In this document: one piece after another, positions 41,009-56,594 of the stretch | Numbering within the stretch: position 1 is the first letter of the stretch | Layout of the letters: each line of letters starts with the position of its first letter | Assembly (NCBI GenBank): GCA_964587045.1 | Contig: CAZPJY010000002.1 | Span: 1-64,000 of the forward strand | Direction of reading: 5' to 3' | Source of the DNA: an uncultured Methanosarcinales archaeon | GTDB taxonomy: Archaea; Nanobdellota; Nanobdellia; Woesearchaeales; CAZPJY01 | DNA length: 64,000 bases | Notes under the pieces: model-generated | Databases searched by the model: none | Told to the model about the DNA's origin: nothing | The model's input: the letters and a program-made list of their open reading frames with translations, nothing else | Position numbers and translations under genes: made by a program

Positions 41009-41368
41009 TTATGACCAATGCTCCTGTAACTTTCCTACAATATCGCAGAGCTTCTCACCGGTGTCGAAGTCCAACTTGTCCTGCTTTACGAGCTCCTCCA
41101 GCCTAAACAGCACGCCAGCTGCGTTGATGTATGAATTCTTGTGTCTCTCGATATCCTTTTGGTTCCGCTGCTCGTCCACCTGCTCTGAGATTCCGGCTTC
41201 GATGTAAGATAACCTAAGCTCAATTTGCTTATAGAGGGTTCTCTTCTCCATCTCAACATATTCGAGAAAATCAAGGAAAGGCATCTGCTGGACTTCCCCA
41301 TCAAGTTTTAAGTACTCCGACCTGATGCTTTCTACTGCCTCATGAAGGTAGTATTCGCTCGCTTTCAT
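41009..41368 (-). CDS. Helical hypothetical protein (119 aa) coupled to the LysM gene
   Basis: ATG 41368 (MKASEYYLHEAV) overlaps the upstream stop as ATGA. Confidence 0.6.
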   Translation of the reverse strand: MKASEYYLHEAVESIRSEYLKLDGEVQQMPFLDFLEYVEMEKRTLYKQIELRLSYIEAGISEQVDEQRNQKDIERHKNSYINAAGVLFRLEELVKQDKLDFDTGEKLCDIVGKLQEHWS

Positions 41369-42453
41369 AGGTTCAGCCACACCTTTGCCGAATGGATGGG
41401 ATTGTTGCTCGCGCTCCTTCCCCACTGGTTGGCCTCGTGCCCGTACTCGTAGCCCACTCCGAACTTGCCAAGGTCGGCTCCGATGCCGTAGGTCAGCTTG
41501 AGCATCTCGAAGTCCTTGCCTGCGAAGAACCACTCGCCGAAGCCCACCAGCTTCCAGGGCAGCTTGACCCAGTAGTCCATCTCCCACCTGTCGGGCCCGT
41601 TGTCGTCCTCCTTCCCGCTCACCCAGTAGTAGTTGAACTTCTGGCCGCCTGTTATGCGTATCTTAACCTCATCGTGGCTTACCCCTCCTGAGAAGCCTGC
41701 GGTCCCGAAGCCGTCCAGCGACAGGCTGTTGTCCCGAAAGGATGTGTTCATCGCACCGACGCTCCCTGTGAGGTCAAGATAAAATATGCCTGAGCTGAGC
41801 AGGTTGCGGAACAGCCTGAACTCGCTCCTAGCGACAGCGTTCCTGCCGTGCCTGAACTTGAAGGCCGTCCCAGAGTGTTCCTTGGCCAGGCCCTGCTGGT
41901 ACTTCTTGCCGAACGTGCCCTGCAGGATCAGTTCGGGCATCTTGTGGTCGGGCCCTTCGATCTTGGGGTTGTAAATCAAAGAGAATGTCAGCTTGTCGAT
42001 GGACACGCCTTCCTTCCTGTTATGGTAGGCGTACCACTTGTTCACCTCATTTGCGTGGTCCAGCGCGTAGGGCAAGTTGTTGATCGCCACGATGATACGC
42101 CTCTGGTTTCGGATCACCTCGTCGAACTTGCCGTCGATGCTCTTCAGGAACGGCGCTGGGAACTTCGCTTCCGGCCTTTCCTGTTTTATCTTCTTTTCGA
42201 TGACGCTCGGGAACGGAACGTTGATCGTCTGTCCCTCCTTGATCAGGTGCGGGTCCTCGATGTCAGGATTGTACTCCTTGTAGATGTACTCCCAGTGCAT
42301 CGGGTTGCCGTCGTTTTTCTCTGCAATCTGTGACAGCGTATCCCCCTCCCTTACCTTGTACTTGTAACAGTCCTGTTGCTGCGCCTGGGCCCCGAACGTC
42401 AGCCCGAGGACTCCCAGCCCCACCAGTCCGTATTTTGTGATCCTGTTCATCAT
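41365..42453 (-). CDS. Secreted LysM protein with predicted C-terminal beta-barrel
   Basis: Signal AQA/QQQ; LysM YKVREGDTLSQIA...NPDIEDPHLIKEGQTINVP; series of amphipathic Gly/aromatic strands; SD GAGGTGA. Confidence 0.75.
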   Translation of the reverse strand: MMNRITKYGLVGLGVLGLTFGAQAQQQDCYKYKVREGDTLSQIAEKNDGNPMHWEYIYKEYNPDIEDPHLIKEGQTINVPFPSVIEKKIKQERPEAKFPAPFLKSIDGKFDEVIRNQRRIIVAINNLPYALDHANEVNKWYAYHNRKEGVSIDKLTFSLIYNPKIEGPDHKMPELILQGTFGKKYQQGLAKEHSGTAFKFRHGRNAVARSEFRLFRNLLSSGIFYLDLTGSVGAMNTSFRDNSLSLDGFGTAGFSGGVSHDEVKIRITGGQKFNYYWVSGKEDDNGPDRWEMDYWVKLPWKLVGFGEWFFAGKDFEMLKLTYGIGADLGKFGVGYEYGHEANQWGRSASNNPIHSAKVWLNL

Positions 42454-50344: not shown

Positions 50345-50839
50345 ATGACCAAGAACGAGTGCAGGTATGAGGCAGTTGGTAGGAGTATAACCAAGGTTGA
50401 AATCCAATTTGAGGATTCTCAGATAGATTACGGATGGGGCAAACCAGTTTCCGAGATATTAAAATCTGTTTACCGGCCCGAGGAGCTCGAAGTCCTTGTC
50501 TTCTCATGTTCTTCAATTTATGATGGATATGATTTTTGCCAGGCCTCCCGAATAGATGGGATCGATAAAATTGTGAAAGACTTCTTAATTTTTCGAGATA
50601 AGCAACATATGGTCGTCCGATCTTCTTTCAATAAAAGAATGAAACCAAGAACTAAGGATTATGTTTGGACCACGCCGCTCCTCGCATTACAAGAGACCTA
50701 CCGAAACAATTTGAGAATACATGTTGAGGGATACAACCCTGAGCGCATGAAGGAGATGGTTGAAGTAATCAAGGAAGAGATGGTCTACGGGGATAAGAGC
50801 CTGGCTATAGGGAATGAGGTAAATCAGGGACTGAGGTAA
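50345..50839 (+). CDS. Hypothetical protein, paralog B
   Basis: Same shared motifs as paralog A. Confidence 0.7.
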   Translation: MTKNECRYEAVGRSITKVEIQFEDSQIDYGWGKPVSEILKSVYRPEELEVLVFSCSSIYDGYDFCQASRIDGIDKIVKDFLIFRDKQHMVVRSSFNKRMKPRTKDYVWTTPLLALQETYRNNLRIHVEGYNPERMKEMVEVIKEEMVYGDKSLAIGNEVNQGLR

Positions 50840-50846
50840 ATTCCTA

Positions 50847-51118
50847 TCATCTGCGCTCGTTNNNNNNNNNNGCTCTAGCTTCTTGAGGAAAACCTCTTCT
50901 AGATTTATCTTGTGTATCCAGCAGAGCTTGTTCAGCTGCCAGAGTATATCGGCAACCTCACCCTCAAAATCCTCCCTCTTCTGCTTCTCCCGGACTGCCT
51001 CGCACACCTCGCCGACTTCCTCGACCAGGTGCAGCAGTACTTCTGTGCCGTCCTTCGGCAGGCATCCCTTCTTTTCCATCTGTTGCATCTGCCTTTCGCC
51101 TAACTCATGCAGGTCCAT
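50847..51118 (-). CDS. MazG-like NTP pyrophosphohydrolase (spans the N gap)
   Basis: LVEEVGEV.E, E.EVAD; after the gap reads NERR-stop, so the 143-aa ORF-track product is an artefact. Confidence 0.85.
50862..50871. other. Scaffold gap (10 N)
   Basis: Run of N. Confidence 1.
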
Positions 51119-52763: not shown

Positions 52764-54131
52764 ATGGTCCTTGACAAGCTAGGCAGCTCCCTGAAGGGGA
52801 CACTGCAAAAGATTGCGAAGTCGATGTTCGTAGATGAAAAGCTCATCAACGAGCTGGTGAAGGACATCCAGCGTGCGCTGCTGCAAAGCGACGTCAACGT
52901 CAAGCTGGTGTTCGACCTCTCAAAGCAGATCAAGGAGCGTGCTCTCAAGGAGGAGACGCCTCCCGGGCTCTCGAAGAAGGAGCACCTGATAAACATAGTC
53001 TACGAGTCTCTCGTCACCTTCCTGGGAGGGGAGGGCCTCAGGCTCGATTTCAAGAAGAAGCCGGTCGTCCTGATGCTCGTCGGCCTGTTCGGCAACGGCA
53101 AGACCACAACTGCCGGAAAGCTCGCCCACTATTACCAAAAGAGAGGCCGCAAGGTGGCCATGGTCCAGACCGACACTTGGCGTCCGGCAGCCTACACACA
53201 GCTCAAGACCTTGGGTGGTCAAATCAAGGTCCCGGTGTATGGAGACCCCAAAGGCAAGGACCCGGTTAAGATTTGGAAGGATTTTGCCCCGCAGAAGGGC
53301 AAGTTCGACCTGATCATCGTTGACACCGCGGGACGCGATGCTCTCTCTAACGACCTCATCAAGGAGCTCAACGGAATCAACGAGGCTGTCAGGGCAGACA
53401 CCCGCCTGCTGGTGATTGGAGCCGACGTCGGCCAGGCAGCGGAGAAGCAGGCCCGAGCCTTCCACGACACCTGCGGCGTCACCGGAGTGATCATCACGAA
53501 GCTCGACGGCACAGCCAAGGGTGGAGGGGCCCTCATAGCTTGCGCGGTGACAGAGGCGCCTGTGATTTTCGTGGGTGTTGGAGAAAAGATTGACGCTTTC
53601 GAGGAGTTCCGGCCCAAGGGTTTCGTTGGCCGTCTTCTGGGCATGGGCGACCTTGAAGCGCTGCTGGACAAGGCCAGGGAGGCCATCAGCGAAGAGGACG
53701 CAAAAGACATCAGCAAGAAGCTCCTGAAGGGTGACTTTAACCTAATAGACCTCTATGAACAGATGCAGGCCGTGCGCAAGATGGGTCCACTTTCTAAGGT
53801 GATGGAGATGGTTCCTGGCATGGGGCAGCTGAACATCCCAAAGGAGATGCTCAACGTGCAGGAAGGGAAGCTTGAGAAGTGGAAGCACATCATGGGCTCC
53901 ATGTCAAAGGAGGAGCTTGAGGACCCGGACATCATGTCTGTTTCACGCATCGATCGGGTGGCGAAGGGCTCAGGCATAGGTGCTTCGGAGGTAAGGGACC
54001 TGCTCAAGCAGTACAAGCAGTCCAAGAAGCTTATGAAGATGCTCAAGGGCGGCTCCCCCAAGTCTATGGAGAAGATGATGAAGCGCATGGGCGGAAAGGT
54101 CCCGGGAATGGGCAATGTCAGGATCAGGTGA
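52764..54131 (+). CDS. srp54: Signal recognition particle protein SRP54
   Basis: ALL.SDVN, GLFGNGKTTT, DTWRPAA, DTAGR, TKLDGTAKGGGAL, Met-rich M domain. Confidence 0.96.
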   Translation: MVLDKLGSSLKGTLQKIAKSMFVDEKLINELVKDIQRALLQSDVNVKLVFDLSKQIKERALKEETPPGLSKKEHLINIVYESLVTFLGGEGLRLDFKKKPVVLMLVGLFGNGKTTTAGKLAHYYQKRGRKVAMVQTDTWRPAAYTQLKTLGGQIKVPVYGDPKGKDPVKIWKDFAPQKGKFDLIIVDTAGRDALSNDLIKELNGINEAVRADTRLLVIGADVGQAAEKQARAFHDTCGVTGVIITKLDGTAKGGGALIACAVTEAPVIFVGVGEKIDAFEEFRPKGFVGRLLGMGDLEALLDKAREAISEEDAKDISKKLLKGDFNLIDLYEQMQAVRKMGPLSKVMEMVPGMGQLNIPKEMLNVQEGKLEKWKHIMGSMSKEELEDPDIMSVSRIDRVAKGSGIGASEVRDLLKQYKQSKKLMKMLKGGSPKSMEKMMKRMGGKVPGMGNVRIR

Positions 54132-54603
54132 GCTTCGAGTTAAGGATTTTCCTCAGCTTCTGGTATGCAGGTTGATTTTCAGGAAATAAGTAGTCGGTTA
54201 TCGATTCGATGATCCCATTCCTCTTAATGAGGTCATAGTACCCGTAGCCGATCTGCCTTGCTACGTTTTGGTGCCAACTGGCTGCGAGCGCCTGGTTGAC
54301 TTCATCTTCGTATCTGGGGTTGGTAATGCCGTTCACTTCTTTTGGGGTCTCGCATTTGATGTAATTCAACTGCTGCGTTAGGTCGATTATCTCCGCCAGC
54401 TTCAGTCGGAGCAGGCGGTCATACGATTTCATCAGCATCTTCACGCAGAACCCGTAAGCCTTCCTGACCCCATTTGGCCTGATGTCCTCATAGCCTTCCA
54501 CGAGATCAGCCAGCTTCCGGTAGGGCGTGTCGAATATGCCGAGCCTTTGCTTCTTCTCCAGAATCCGCGCTTCCAGAGTCTCGACGTACTCATCCTTATC
54601 CAT
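54124..54603 (-). CDS. Hypothetical protein (third gene of the transglycosylase operon)
   Basis: SD GGAGG; overlaps the upstream gene end. Confidence 0.6.
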   Translation of the reverse strand: MDKDEYVETLEARILEKKQRLGIFDTPYRKLADLVEGYEDIRPNGVRKAYGFCVKMLMKSYDRLLRLKLAEIIDLTQQLNYIKCETPKEVNGITNPRYEDEVNQALAASWHQNVARQIGYGYYDLIKRNGIIESITDYLFPENQPAYQKLRKILNSKLT

Positions 54604-55159
54604 TGGCATCCTCCAAGACGTCATCAAATGCGTGGTACAGCACAAACAGACCTGCTGAATTGATAGTGAGGTACTCGGAGGTAAGGGTGCTGGTCCTGCC
54701 GAACACCCTGTAAGTGGAAAAAAGGCGAAGCTCTGGATTTGGGCTCTCCTTGAGGTCTTGTACCCTGATGTCGTTTAGGAACTGCTTCTTCTCACGGCTG
54801 AAGTCGATACTGTAGAATTTCTTTCTGAGCTTCCCCAATGACAGCCTGTCAACCAGGAAACGGATTGAACCGTTGTCGTAGTGATCAAGGAACTTCTCAA
54901 GATGCTTTTTGCCGGTATCAATGATGTAATTTTTTGAAAGTGCTGGATCCAGGCACAGGTCACACTCCGGGCCCTGGTAATCGAATTCCTTTTCTGGGTG
55001 GTCGAGCATCGCCTGCCTCTGGGCTGAGAACCTGATTTTCTCTTCCCACGACAGGTCGAAATCCCGCGACCGCTCAGTGAGGGCGCTGATTATCTTGTCT
55101 TGGTTTTCGTGTAGGAACCTGCTGACGTGTTGGCAGTATAAGCTATTGGTTTTTTCCAT
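54596..55159 (-). CDS. Hypothetical protein (second gene of the transglycosylase operon)
   Basis: SD AGGTGA; overlaps the transglycosylase 3' end; one CxxC. Confidence 0.6.
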   Translation of the reverse strand: MEKTNSLYCQHVSRFLHENQDKIISALTERSRDFDLSWEEKIRFSAQRQAMLDHPEKEFDYQGPECDLCLDPALSKNYIIDTGKKHLEKFLDHYDNGSIRFLVDRLSLGKLRKKFYSIDFSREKKQFLNDIRVQDLKESPNPELRLFSTYRVFGRTSTLTSEYLTINSAGLFVLYHAFDDVLEDANG

Positions 55160-56468
55160 GATCTCTCACCTTCAGTTTTGCTCCTTCCAGGATTTTATGG
55201 TTTTTGAGTCCGTTCCATGCCATGATGTCAGATATGGATGTTCCGTACATGCGTGACAGGCGTCCAAGGGTCTCACCCTTCTTCACTATGTGGTGCTCCC
55301 CGGTATTTTCGGCCACGTTGATTTCGTAGAATTCCTTCGGGTCCATGAAAAGTTTGGGGTCCATCTTCACTGGCAGGCTCTCTTCTTGAGGCCCTCCGAA
55401 CAGGAAGGACATGGCATAGACCTTCCCGACGTATCTCTGTGTTTGCTCGAGGAACAGGTCTTTCATGACCCAGTAGTTGTTGGTCCGCATCTTCCTCCTG
55501 ACATCGTCGACGGTCTTCCTTCCGCAGTTGTACGCTGCGAGCGCAAGTGGGAAGGCCATTTGTTCTGGGTACTGCTCGTTTGAGAGCTCCTTTCTGTAGT
55601 ATTCGAAGTTGTCTAGGAGATGTTTTGTTCCAGCTTTGACGTTGCCTTTCAATTTCAATACGTTCTCTCCGTAGAGCTCGCCGGTCTCCTTGAGGACCTG
55701 CAGAAAACCGTAGGCTTTCGCCTTCGATTTGATGACTTTTCCGTCCTTGGTGTGGTAACCTTGGCTCTCGACTACCGCAAGCCCCTTTACCAGGGCCAGG
55801 TCAAGGTCGAGGTCATCGCACATGTCTTTTAGGATATCATTGTGCTGTTCGACCCTGTCAACGATTTCTTCATAAGTCCTGACCTCGAATATGGTGTTCA
55901 AGGCCTTGTAGTACTCAGCATATATGGTGTTCTCGACACCTTGTGTGTATTGGTCTGACGTCCAGATCAGCTTATCGATTCCGACCGCTTCGATCTTTTC
56001 GAATACCTCTTTGTTCGGGAAGAGGGTTTGCCTCTGTGCGATGTAGGCCTTGTTGATGGTTTCGGTCTTGGCAGCTATATCAGATATGGTCAGGGCGGTG
56101 TAGACAGCTGCGGGCAGTAGAATCGCGGAAGCTGCGTAGGCTGTTCTGTACATCCCCCGGACTGCGCCGCCCTTGTTGGTGTCGTAATCGTCGTAGGATG
56201 CTGAGAGCCTGTCAATCTTCTGCCTGTTCCTGCTCACGATGTTGGTTGCGCCTTTCGCTGCCAGCCCGGTGAGTCCTCCCAACACGATGTATGCTATGCC
56301 CAGAGCGCTCGGATTGCTCTGCATGGTGACCGTGTCGGTCATCTTGTGCGCCCCTATCACCCCTCCTATCACCGGGATGGATATCGCTGATGCGTAGAGG
56401 GCTGCTTTGAACCAGTTGGTCTTCCTGCCGATTCTCCTTTTCCTGATCTCTTCTTCTGTCTTGCGCAT
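55143..56468 (-). CDS. Membrane-anchored GH23 lytic transglycosylase with C-terminal LysM (MltD-like)
   Basis: 3 N-terminal TM; LAVVES (catalytic Glu), AYGFLQ, ALAAYNCG, QTQRYVGKV; LysM HIVKKGETL..LS..YG.SISDIMAWNGL. Confidence 0.88.
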   Translation of the reverse strand: MRKTEEEIRKRRIGRKTNWFKAALYASAISIPVIGGVIGAHKMTDTVTMQSNPSALGIAYIVLGGLTGLAAKGATNIVSRNRQKIDRLSASYDDYDTNKGGAVRGMYRTAYAASAILLPAAVYTALTISDIAAKTETINKAYIAQRQTLFPNKEVFEKIEAVGIDKLIWTSDQYTQGVENTIYAEYYKALNTIFEVRTYEEIVDRVEQHNDILKDMCDDLDLDLALVKGLAVVESQGYHTKDGKVIKSKAKAYGFLQVLKETGELYGENVLKLKGNVKAGTKHLLDNFEYYRKELSNEQYPEQMAFPLALAAYNCGRKTVDDVRRKMRTNNYWVMKDLFLEQTQRYVGKVYAMSFLFGGPQEESLPVKMDPKLFMDPKEFYEINVAENTGEHHIVKKGETLGRLSRMYGTSISDIMAWNGLKNHKILEGAKLKVRDHGKNQ

Positions 56469-56594
56469 GTGGGGGGAGGTTCAAAAGGCCATATATAAAA
56501 CTTTCCATTTTTAACCACTTATTAGTAGTTAATATTTTATCAAAGGGTTTAAATACAGCTGATGACTTGCTCAATCCTTTCAAGTTGATTTAAT

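Follow-up and report, generated by a model that had tools for sequence, protein, structure and literature searches.

The closest described counterpart of the gene considered here is MltD, the membrane-bound lytic murein transglycosylase D (family 1D within glycoside hydrolase family 23, GH23; 8rhe and relatives) which carries a lipoprotein signal and an SLT core followed by C-terminal LysM. Cleavage by lytic transglycosylases is non-hydrolytic and leaves 1,6-anhydro-N-acetylmuramic acid (1,6-anhydroMurNAc) ends. Murein-like lytic transglycosylases have been described as widespread in Woesearchaeota and Pacearchaeota, with a proposed role in binding and degrading bacterial walls (fam00969 of Castelle et al. 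2021, PMC8204110), and the same proposal was repeated for DPANN archaea of oxygen-deficient zones (PMC10936187). Archaeal peptidoglycan hydrolases have been reported to kill bacteria (PLoS Biol 2025, PMC12352652), in an article which refers to Vigneron et al. 2022 on the murein transglycosylases of Woesearchaeota. Here we describe a locus in an uncultured archaeon, deposited as a member of the Methanosarcinales and assigned by GTDB to the order Woesearchaeales. The stretch of DNA analysed, here termed the window, comprises 64,000 nucleotides (nt; positions 1 to 64,000 of contig CAZPJY010000002.1, assembly GCA_964587045.1) and constitutes contig C2 of a 1.6-Mb, 50-contig genome which is 100% complete by markers. 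Three tightly coupled open reading frames (ORFs) on the minus strand, ORF1, ORF2 and ORF3, occupy positions 54124-56468.

We consider it probable, at roughly 0.68, that ORF1 encodes a native MltD-type murein lytic transglycosylase, displayed on the cell surface, which a small DPANN-type archaeon directs against foreign murein. It shares with MltD the SLT core, the C-terminal LysM, the sequence motifs and a conserved Tyr, but it lacks the lipoprotein signal and carries three hydrophobic segments instead, it carries a single LysM against two in the closest bacterial-type proteins, its identity to MltD-type proteins is only about 25-31%, and it belongs to an archaeon that does not synthesise murein. 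The fam00969 proteins also carry an SLT domain, are encoded by small-genome DPANN archaea and are predicted to be extracellular; they are described as large, up to ~3000 amino acid residues (aa), in contrast to the 441 aa of ORF1 with its MltD-like core and LysM, a comparison made by description only (PMC8204110). The hydrolases of the 2025 work resemble ORF1 in being archaeal, exported and aimed at bacteria, and in joining a wall-binding to a wall-cleaving domain, but the examples given are M23-type hydrolases of the Halobacteriales and, in the sections consulted, transglycosylases enter only as a cited remark (PMC12352652). A literature search pairing DPANN with MltD yielded nothing, and one pairing Woesearchaeota with LysM returned only the 2025 peptidoglycan hydrolase work. 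The enzyme class is already published for these archaea and ORF1 adds a further member; what sets this locus apart is its three-helix anchor and its pair of coupled orphan genes, all without relatives. If the interpretation is correct, ORF1 would provide one more documented case for a view already in print, that small DPANN archaea bear enzymes on their surface which attack bacterial walls; bacteria, and not other archaea alone, may thus be the cells on or off which such archaea live. Being short, with a clear soluble catalytic part and a single predicted catalytic residue, ORF1 would also be convenient for a first biochemical test.

ORF1 (55143-56468, minus strand) is predicted to be a membrane-anchored MltD-like lytic transglycosylase with a single LysM. 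The catalytic SLT/GH23 domain spans residues 222-333 by Pfam (55470..55805, minus strand; PF01464, 32.8 bits against a cut-off of 21.3, and 35.3 bits in the genome-wide scan), and the MltD-like homology extends beyond it, over residues ~205-360. The LysM domain (55167..55292, minus strand; residues 393-434) matches PF01476 at 48.2 bits (cut-off 20.9, E 1.1e-12) and is near full-length, covering positions 1-42 of the 43 in the profile. Motifs II (G-L/F-x-Q), III (A-Y-N-x-G) and IV (a conserved Tyr) are defined in the lytic transglycosylase literature. In a 14-row alignment, A1, of ORF1 with MltD-like proteins, the residues E, S, G, Q, Y, N, G, W and Y form invariant columns and are distributed over all four motifs and the segment that follows the third. 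Motif I corresponds to VVES at residues 232-235, where E234-S235 coincide with the invariant columns E39 and S40 and the codon of the predicted catalytic Glu234 lies at 55767..55769 (minus strand). Motif II is represented by GFLQ at 254-257 (G254 and Q257, invariant columns G59 and Q62), motif III by AAYNCG at 311-316 (invariant columns Y118, N119 and G121) and motif IV by Y346 within RYVGKVY (invariant column Y151), and the NYW...T..Y segment after motif III is retained. ORF1 differs from the other rows of A1 in carrying additional residues past the E-S motif and an altered stretch ahead of motif III. A profile of the A1 set, which is dominated by bacterial rows, matches 8rhe at E 1e-65. The retention of the catalytic columns through so much divergence argues for retained activity of ORF1.

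The membrane anchor is predicted from three hydrophobic segments, for which peaks are given as Kyte-Doolittle means over 19 residues. Segment 1 (56343..56414, residues 19-42, peak 1.76) follows a Lys/Arg-rich N-terminus, segment 2 (56244..56315, residues 52-75, peak 1.56) is the weakest of the three, and segment 3 (56067..56144, residues 109-134, peak 1.65) is preceded by a loop with six Lys or Arg residues; all lie on the minus strand. Lys and Arg together number 8 in the N-terminal 18 residues, 1 in the loop at 41-54 and 6 in the loop at 75-105. Hydropathy and this charge bias lead, under the positive-inside rule, to a predicted topology which places the N-terminus and the second loop in the cytoplasm and the SLT-LysM part outside. 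Segment 1 could be a cleaved signal peptide, in which case the C-terminal part would still lie outside. ORF1 has no lipobox because no Cys precedes residue 214. The original prediction, made from the sequence of the window, had proposed an enzyme with four intact GH23 motifs including the catalytic Glu, a C-terminal LysM, a three-helix anchor in place of the lipoprotein signal and display outside the cell; the motifs and domains are recovered by Pfam and by the invariant columns of A1, the anchor by the segments described above, and the surface location agrees with the topology predicted from hydropathy and charge. The contact-dependent cutting of murein which it further proposed would be a reasonable expectation for such an enzyme.

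No other genome from the family of the host has been sampled, and its order is one of small genomes (0.6-2.7 Mb). No match to Mur_ligase_M was found in the host genome, and the host should therefore make neither murein nor pseudomurein by known routes; lacking such polymers of its own, it would have to find the substrate of ORF1 elsewhere, in a foreign wall. Domain counts in the same genome are two SLT, three LysM, two Peptidase_M23 and one Amidase_2, and NlpC/P60 was not found. The second SLT gene (G000:C40:3935-4492; locus L001 1321-1878, plus strand) encodes 185 aa with one N-terminal hydrophobic segment, scores 88.4 bits and is convergent with a gene for a proteasome-activating ATPase. The M23 and Amidase_2 genes lie at G000:C1:80114-80401 (plus), G000:C26:777-1133 (minus) and G000:C13:28880-29236 (minus); both M23 frames have a hydrophobic segment and one of the two includes a masked run of N, and the Amidase_2 protein is short and without a signal. 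Taken together, the SLT, M23 and Amidase_2 genes resemble a set for degrading murein, in a genome that lacks Mur ligases.

In the mechanism that we propose, the three N-terminal helices, as suggested by hydropathy and charge, would hold ORF1 in the cytoplasmic membrane with its ~300 C-terminal residues outside the cell. The single LysM would then bind glycan strands of bacterial peptidoglycan, and the GH23 domain would cut the bond between N-acetylmuramic acid and N-acetylglucosamine (MurNAc-GlcNAc) with Glu234 as the acid catalyst. ORF1, the second small SLT protein, the two membrane-anchored M23 peptidases and the amidase could constitute a kit for opening or digesting bacterial walls. Its most likely target is a bacterial host or prey, whose wall would be attacked where the two cells touch; wall debris is a less likely one. 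The products of ORF2 and ORF3 may be accessory or regulatory factors, a best guess and a weak step of the scheme, in which the operon structure alone provides the tie to ORF1.

The layout of the operon was read directly from the sequence. A TATA-box-like element, TTTATATA (56492..56499, minus strand), lies 24 nt upstream of the ORF1 ATG, no Shine-Dalgarno site was seen ahead of this gene, and these two features, given the usual layout of archaeal promoters, indicate that the transcript is probably leaderless and driven by an archaeal-type promoter. The ATG of ORF2 (54596-55159, minus strand) sits at 55159, 17 nt inside the end of ORF1 and before its stop, and is preceded at 7 nt by a Shine-Dalgarno-like GGTGA (55166..55170, minus strand) which also falls within the ORF1 end. 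For ORF3 (54124..54603, minus strand), the best start is the ATG at 54603, which overlaps the stop of ORF2 (ATGGATAA) and follows a Shine-Dalgarno-like GGAGGA (54609..54614, minus strand) at a distance of 6 nt, while the alternative TTG at 54645 given in the ORF list (54124-54645, 173 aa) has no such site. The anti-Shine-Dalgarno sequence of the host is putative, as no clear 16S rRNA 3' end was found and the sole GGATCACCTCC site, on contig C8, is unlike a 16S end. At its other end, ORF3 overlaps by its stop the stop of the convergent srp54, and the neighbourhood consists of housekeeping genes, namely a HAM1-like gene, a tRNA gene and a helicase gene together with SRP54, DHH/DHHA1 and Nre, the last three being archaeal.

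Codon usage was modelled on 410 long ORFs from the host genome, which themselves score 0.405 +/- 0.137 bits per codon; the model gave in-frame values of 0.43 for ORF1, 0.30 for ORF2 and 0.37 for ORF3, with the remaining five frames of each at or below 0.02. GC content at third codon positions (GC3) is 0.68, 0.65 and 0.69, respectively, against 0.73 +/- 0.08 for the host. These host-like values argue that all three are real genes of native composition. The original prediction correctly placed the three ORFs and noted that the two downstream ones overlap, carry Shine-Dalgarno sites and belong to no recognisable family. Its description of the operon as inserted between srp54 and a DHH gene fares less well, given the host-like codons and GC3, the shared stop overlap with srp54 and the lack of mobile-element genes near the locus. 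Moreover, srp54 and DHH are adjacent in none of 16 relatives, examined over 17-kb stretches around the DHH orthologue (Nre is nearby in four), so that there is no empty-site baseline against which an insertion could be judged. By its sequence properties ORF1 appears to be a native gene with no sign of recent import.

SLT domains are common in the order, being found by Pfam in 125 of 201 sampled genomes (above the cut-off in 123) and in 94 of the 152 of high quality. A set of 35 SLT frames was examined, comprising the 30 best loci of this survey, four further loci and the two genes of the host; it is a biased sample, and some frames are cut by the 1.5-kb flanks. Most frames have an N-terminal hydrophobic segment and six of the 35, or five of 33 outside the host genome, carry a C-terminal LysM. 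The latter five (G016, G130, G018, G145 and G106) share with ORF1 the order of N-terminal hydrophobic anchor, SLT and C-terminal LysM. These counts, together with the DPANN transglycosylases already in print (PMC8204110), leave little of the novelty that the original prediction had implied for the enzyme. Two other proteins of the order, in genomes G189 and G101, combine a multi-segment anchor with an MltD-like core 28% identical to ORF1 (E 4e-11) but differ in their neighbours. Their genes (L070 462-1929 in G189 and L054 456-1935 in G101) encode anchored MltD-like SLT proteins of 372 and 353 aa, respectively, without LysM, and at both loci a same-strand gene for a small membrane protein (108 and 137 aa) precedes the SLT gene and a convergent RadC gene follows it. 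No recognisable relatives of the ORF1 anchor, ORF2 or ORF3 were detected in the genomes of the order which encode SLT-LysM or multi-segment SLT proteins, and a search of the host genome for paralogues of the same three yielded none below E 0.4.

With the SLT domain alone, the best matches are P0004 (E 1.3e-11), P0058 and then a protein of the same order, in G034 (E 1.5e-08). P0004 is a bacterial-type MltD-like protein, 31% identical to ORF1 over 188 aa, with the same domain order plus LysM. A quick maximum-likelihood tree of SLT domains was built from 63 rows after 35 near-duplicates had been dropped. ORF1 falls in an unresolved comb with archaeal rows, outside a clade (support 97) which holds all 29 bacterial-type rows and two archaeal ones; since its position is not resolved, we claim no donor, direction or recent transfer. 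The phylogeny proposed as a check in the original prediction thus yielded a long branch among archaeal rows and, in this quick tree, no firm placement.

Several observations weigh against the reading of ORF1 as an active murein-cutting enzyme on the cell surface. Its divergence is extreme: among 5.8 billion clusters no other protein exceeds 40% identity, the next matches being LysM+SLT proteins, from Bacteroidota-type bacteria where named, many of which match in the LysM only. Its terminal branch is the longest in the SLT tree, at 2.8 changes per site, and its best named NCBIfam match, the MltD equivalog PRK10783, reaches 38 bits against a cut-off of 508. By sequence, ORF1 is MltD-like and not an MltD orthologue, and with such divergence its specificity may have changed or its activity may have been lost. 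The main uncertainty concerns the anchor, because the catalytic domain would end up in the cytoplasm should the weak segment 2 (peak 1.56) not form a helix. AnmK was not found in the host genome, which leaves the anhydro-muropeptide product with no known recycling route (MurQ and sugar transporters were not searched for). LysM is described as also able to bind chitin (PMC12352652), and conservation beside an SLT gene cannot support a functional link for ORF2 and ORF3, as these have no relatives.

The same domain evidence would suit a feeding enzyme, by which the archaeon digests peptidoglycan debris, or necromass, in the sediment for the uptake of sugars and amino acids while sparing living bacteria; the peptidases and the amidase of the kit would finish the digestion, and the sequencing runs that match the locus are labelled salt marsh metagenome, a detritus-rich habitat. 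We regard this as unlikely, although it is the most serious of the rivals, since a membrane-tethered enzyme reaches only material which touches the cell and since, in a genome complete by markers, the missing AnmK would leave 1,6-anhydroMurNAc without a known metabolic entry; this absence weakens a feeding role and not a breaching role. A few GH23 enzymes are chitinases, and a protein as divergent from characterised MltD as ORF1, with a LysM that might grip chitin, could act on this or another N-acetylglucosamine polymer in place of murein. Such a substrate is improbable given that ORF1 keeps all residues invariant in the murein-specific MltD-like set, down to the NYW...T..Y segment, and that the M23 and Amidase_2 genes of the same genome act on the peptide part of murein. 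We attach the same low likelihood to a catalytically dead ORF1 that serves as an adhesin, gripping bacterial walls by its LysM and an inactive SLT groove: the long branch, the additional residues past the E-S motif and the altered stretch ahead of motif III are what one might expect of it, but the Glu-Ser pair and every other invariant column have been kept, as purifying selection on activity would leave them.

An assembly chimera, or bacterial contamination in an archaeal bin, is the least probable of the explanations, at no more than a few chances in a hundred. The SLT-LysM architecture is typically bacterial and the window derives from a metagenome assembly of low depth, about 3-fold in run X1. 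Against this, codon score and GC3 match the host, archaeal genes overlap or directly adjoin the three genes at either end, identity to the nearest bacterial-type protein is only 31%, and SLT genes are common in the archaeal order. Contigs built separately from run X1 bridge the srp54/ORF3 junction (54027-54404) and the ORF3/ORF2 junction (54460-54833) without differences, and two pieces of ORF2 from run X3 likewise show none. The support from X1 is weak and non-independent because this run may be the source sample; the misassembly that the original prediction named as a refuting possibility is nevertheless improbable. No contig covers 56011-56486, which includes part of the ORF1 N-terminus, and this says nothing on the assembly; equally, no RNA runs are listed among the sequencing runs which match the locus, and this says nothing on expression. 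The native, surface-displayed transglycosylase remains our preferred reading of ORF1.

The two downstream genes are real and co-translated, and encode cytoplasmic, lineage-specific proteins. ORF2 (187 aa, isoelectric point, pI, 5.9) and ORF3 (159 aa, pI 8.4) are both soluble, with no hydrophobic segments, and neither has a family in Pfam, NCBIfam or PADLOC. In the word-indexed set of 5.8 billion clusters ORF2 retrieves itself alone and ORF3 no relative. PHROGs yielded nothing for ORF2 and, for ORF3, a single PHROG of unknown function at E 0.073; in the ESM Atlas the best score for ORF2 was 0.85 with a low feature share, and ORF3 had no usable match. AlphaFold2 models made without an alignment are all-helical and unusable (mean predicted local distance difference test, pLDDT, 35.0 for ORF2 and 45.8 for ORF3), and a prediction of the complex between the two scored 0.00 in a run without controls, which is no evidence either way. 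Conservation of the two partner genes, a check named in the original prediction, was seen nowhere that was searched. If the link to ORF1 holds, accessory parts of such systems may be lineage-specific and invisible to homology searches, as judged from one genome only.

Two candidate relatives of ORF2 were rejected. When 1.84 billion representatives were searched in full with HMMER, ORF2 retrieved, apart from itself, only P0068, an NHL-repeat/Ig protein (E 3.9e-4), whose score is inflated because one 23-residue motif of ORF2 matches six of its repeats. When 401 genomes of the order were translated in six frames and searched, ORF2 gave seven weak matches, four of which (one in a genome flagged as unpublished) precede the ATPase core of a type II/IV secretion ATPase of ~765 aa that was found in 120 of 121 genomes (two flagged as unpublished). 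Likeness to the N-terminal region of this T2SSE protein fell from 21.0 bits, with the three best-match sequences, to 6.3 bits with 34 unselected ones, a value reached by 1 of 2000 shuffles and given 3.3% by hhalign, and we attribute the first score to the choice of best-match sequences. The secretion-type ATPase of the host (~765 aa; G000:C21:3301-5562, minus strand) matches T2SSE only at residues 453-603 and has a long N-terminal half without a family.

ORF3 shows a weak likeness to the N-terminus of phosphoenolpyruvate (PEP) synthase. The 173-aa form has no Pfam match at E <= 0.1, and this includes PPDK_N (PF01326), the N-terminal ATP-grasp domain of this enzyme. For ORF3, the six-frame search described above for ORF2 produced 16 weak matches (best E 1.6e-5 per genome), 14 of them on the first 150 residues of a frame of ~800-900 aa, and the 13 of these frames that were fetched are PEP synthases. 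Against a profile of the N-termini thus chosen by ORF3 itself, ORF3 scored 16.9 bits (hhalign 92%), and none of 2000 shuffles reached this value, the maximum being 9.3. The test was repeated with 30 N-termini chosen by their likeness to one PEP synthase, from which the row of one genome flagged as unpublished was excluded. The score was then 8.9 bits, again unmatched in 2000 shuffles (maximum 8.3), with hhalign at 50.7%; single-sequence scores ranged from 2.9 to 18.5 bits and the host's own PEP synthase gave 5.0. The GGK and R-S-S-x-x-x-E-D nucleotide-binding motifs of the PpsA rows are replaced in ORF3, and an intact PEP synthase is encoded elsewhere in the host genome. True homology to the PEP synthase N-terminus (PpsA residues ~13-150) is, on these scores, a possibility that we rate at well under even odds.

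Stand-alone paralogues of the PEP synthase N-domain are frequent in the order, as frames of ~290-370 aa which are 45-52% identical to PpsA; examples lie at G041:C3:75781-76260 and G007:C6:58572-59054. Their abundance makes a fragment origin of ORF3 plausible, though not shown. A more specific proposal, in which ORF1-3 would form a lineage-specific module whose two new cytoplasmic proteins control the display of the wall-cutting enzyme and whose ORF3 was born from a dead, truncated PEP synthase N-terminus, is speculative and we give it little credence; if true, it would represent gene birth from a fragment of a housekeeping gene and its recruitment into an inter-domain attack device.

Further observations concern other genes of the host. 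In the window, a 362-aa protein encoded at 41365-42453 (minus strand) has a signal peptide of bacterial appearance, which ends ...AQAQQQD, together with a LysM at 30.3 bits and a long C-terminal part with alternating aromatic and Gly residues which ends ...KVWLNL and is reminiscent of an outer-membrane beta-barrel. On another contig (G000:C6:21392-23517, locus L075), a gene for a 147-aa LysM protein with one hydrophobic segment directly follows and overlaps the gene of a long helical protein (at least 409 aa) which fits no obvious family. At ~50.8 kb in the window, a short run of N lies inside an ORF at 50687-51118 (minus strand) and appears as XXXX in its translation.

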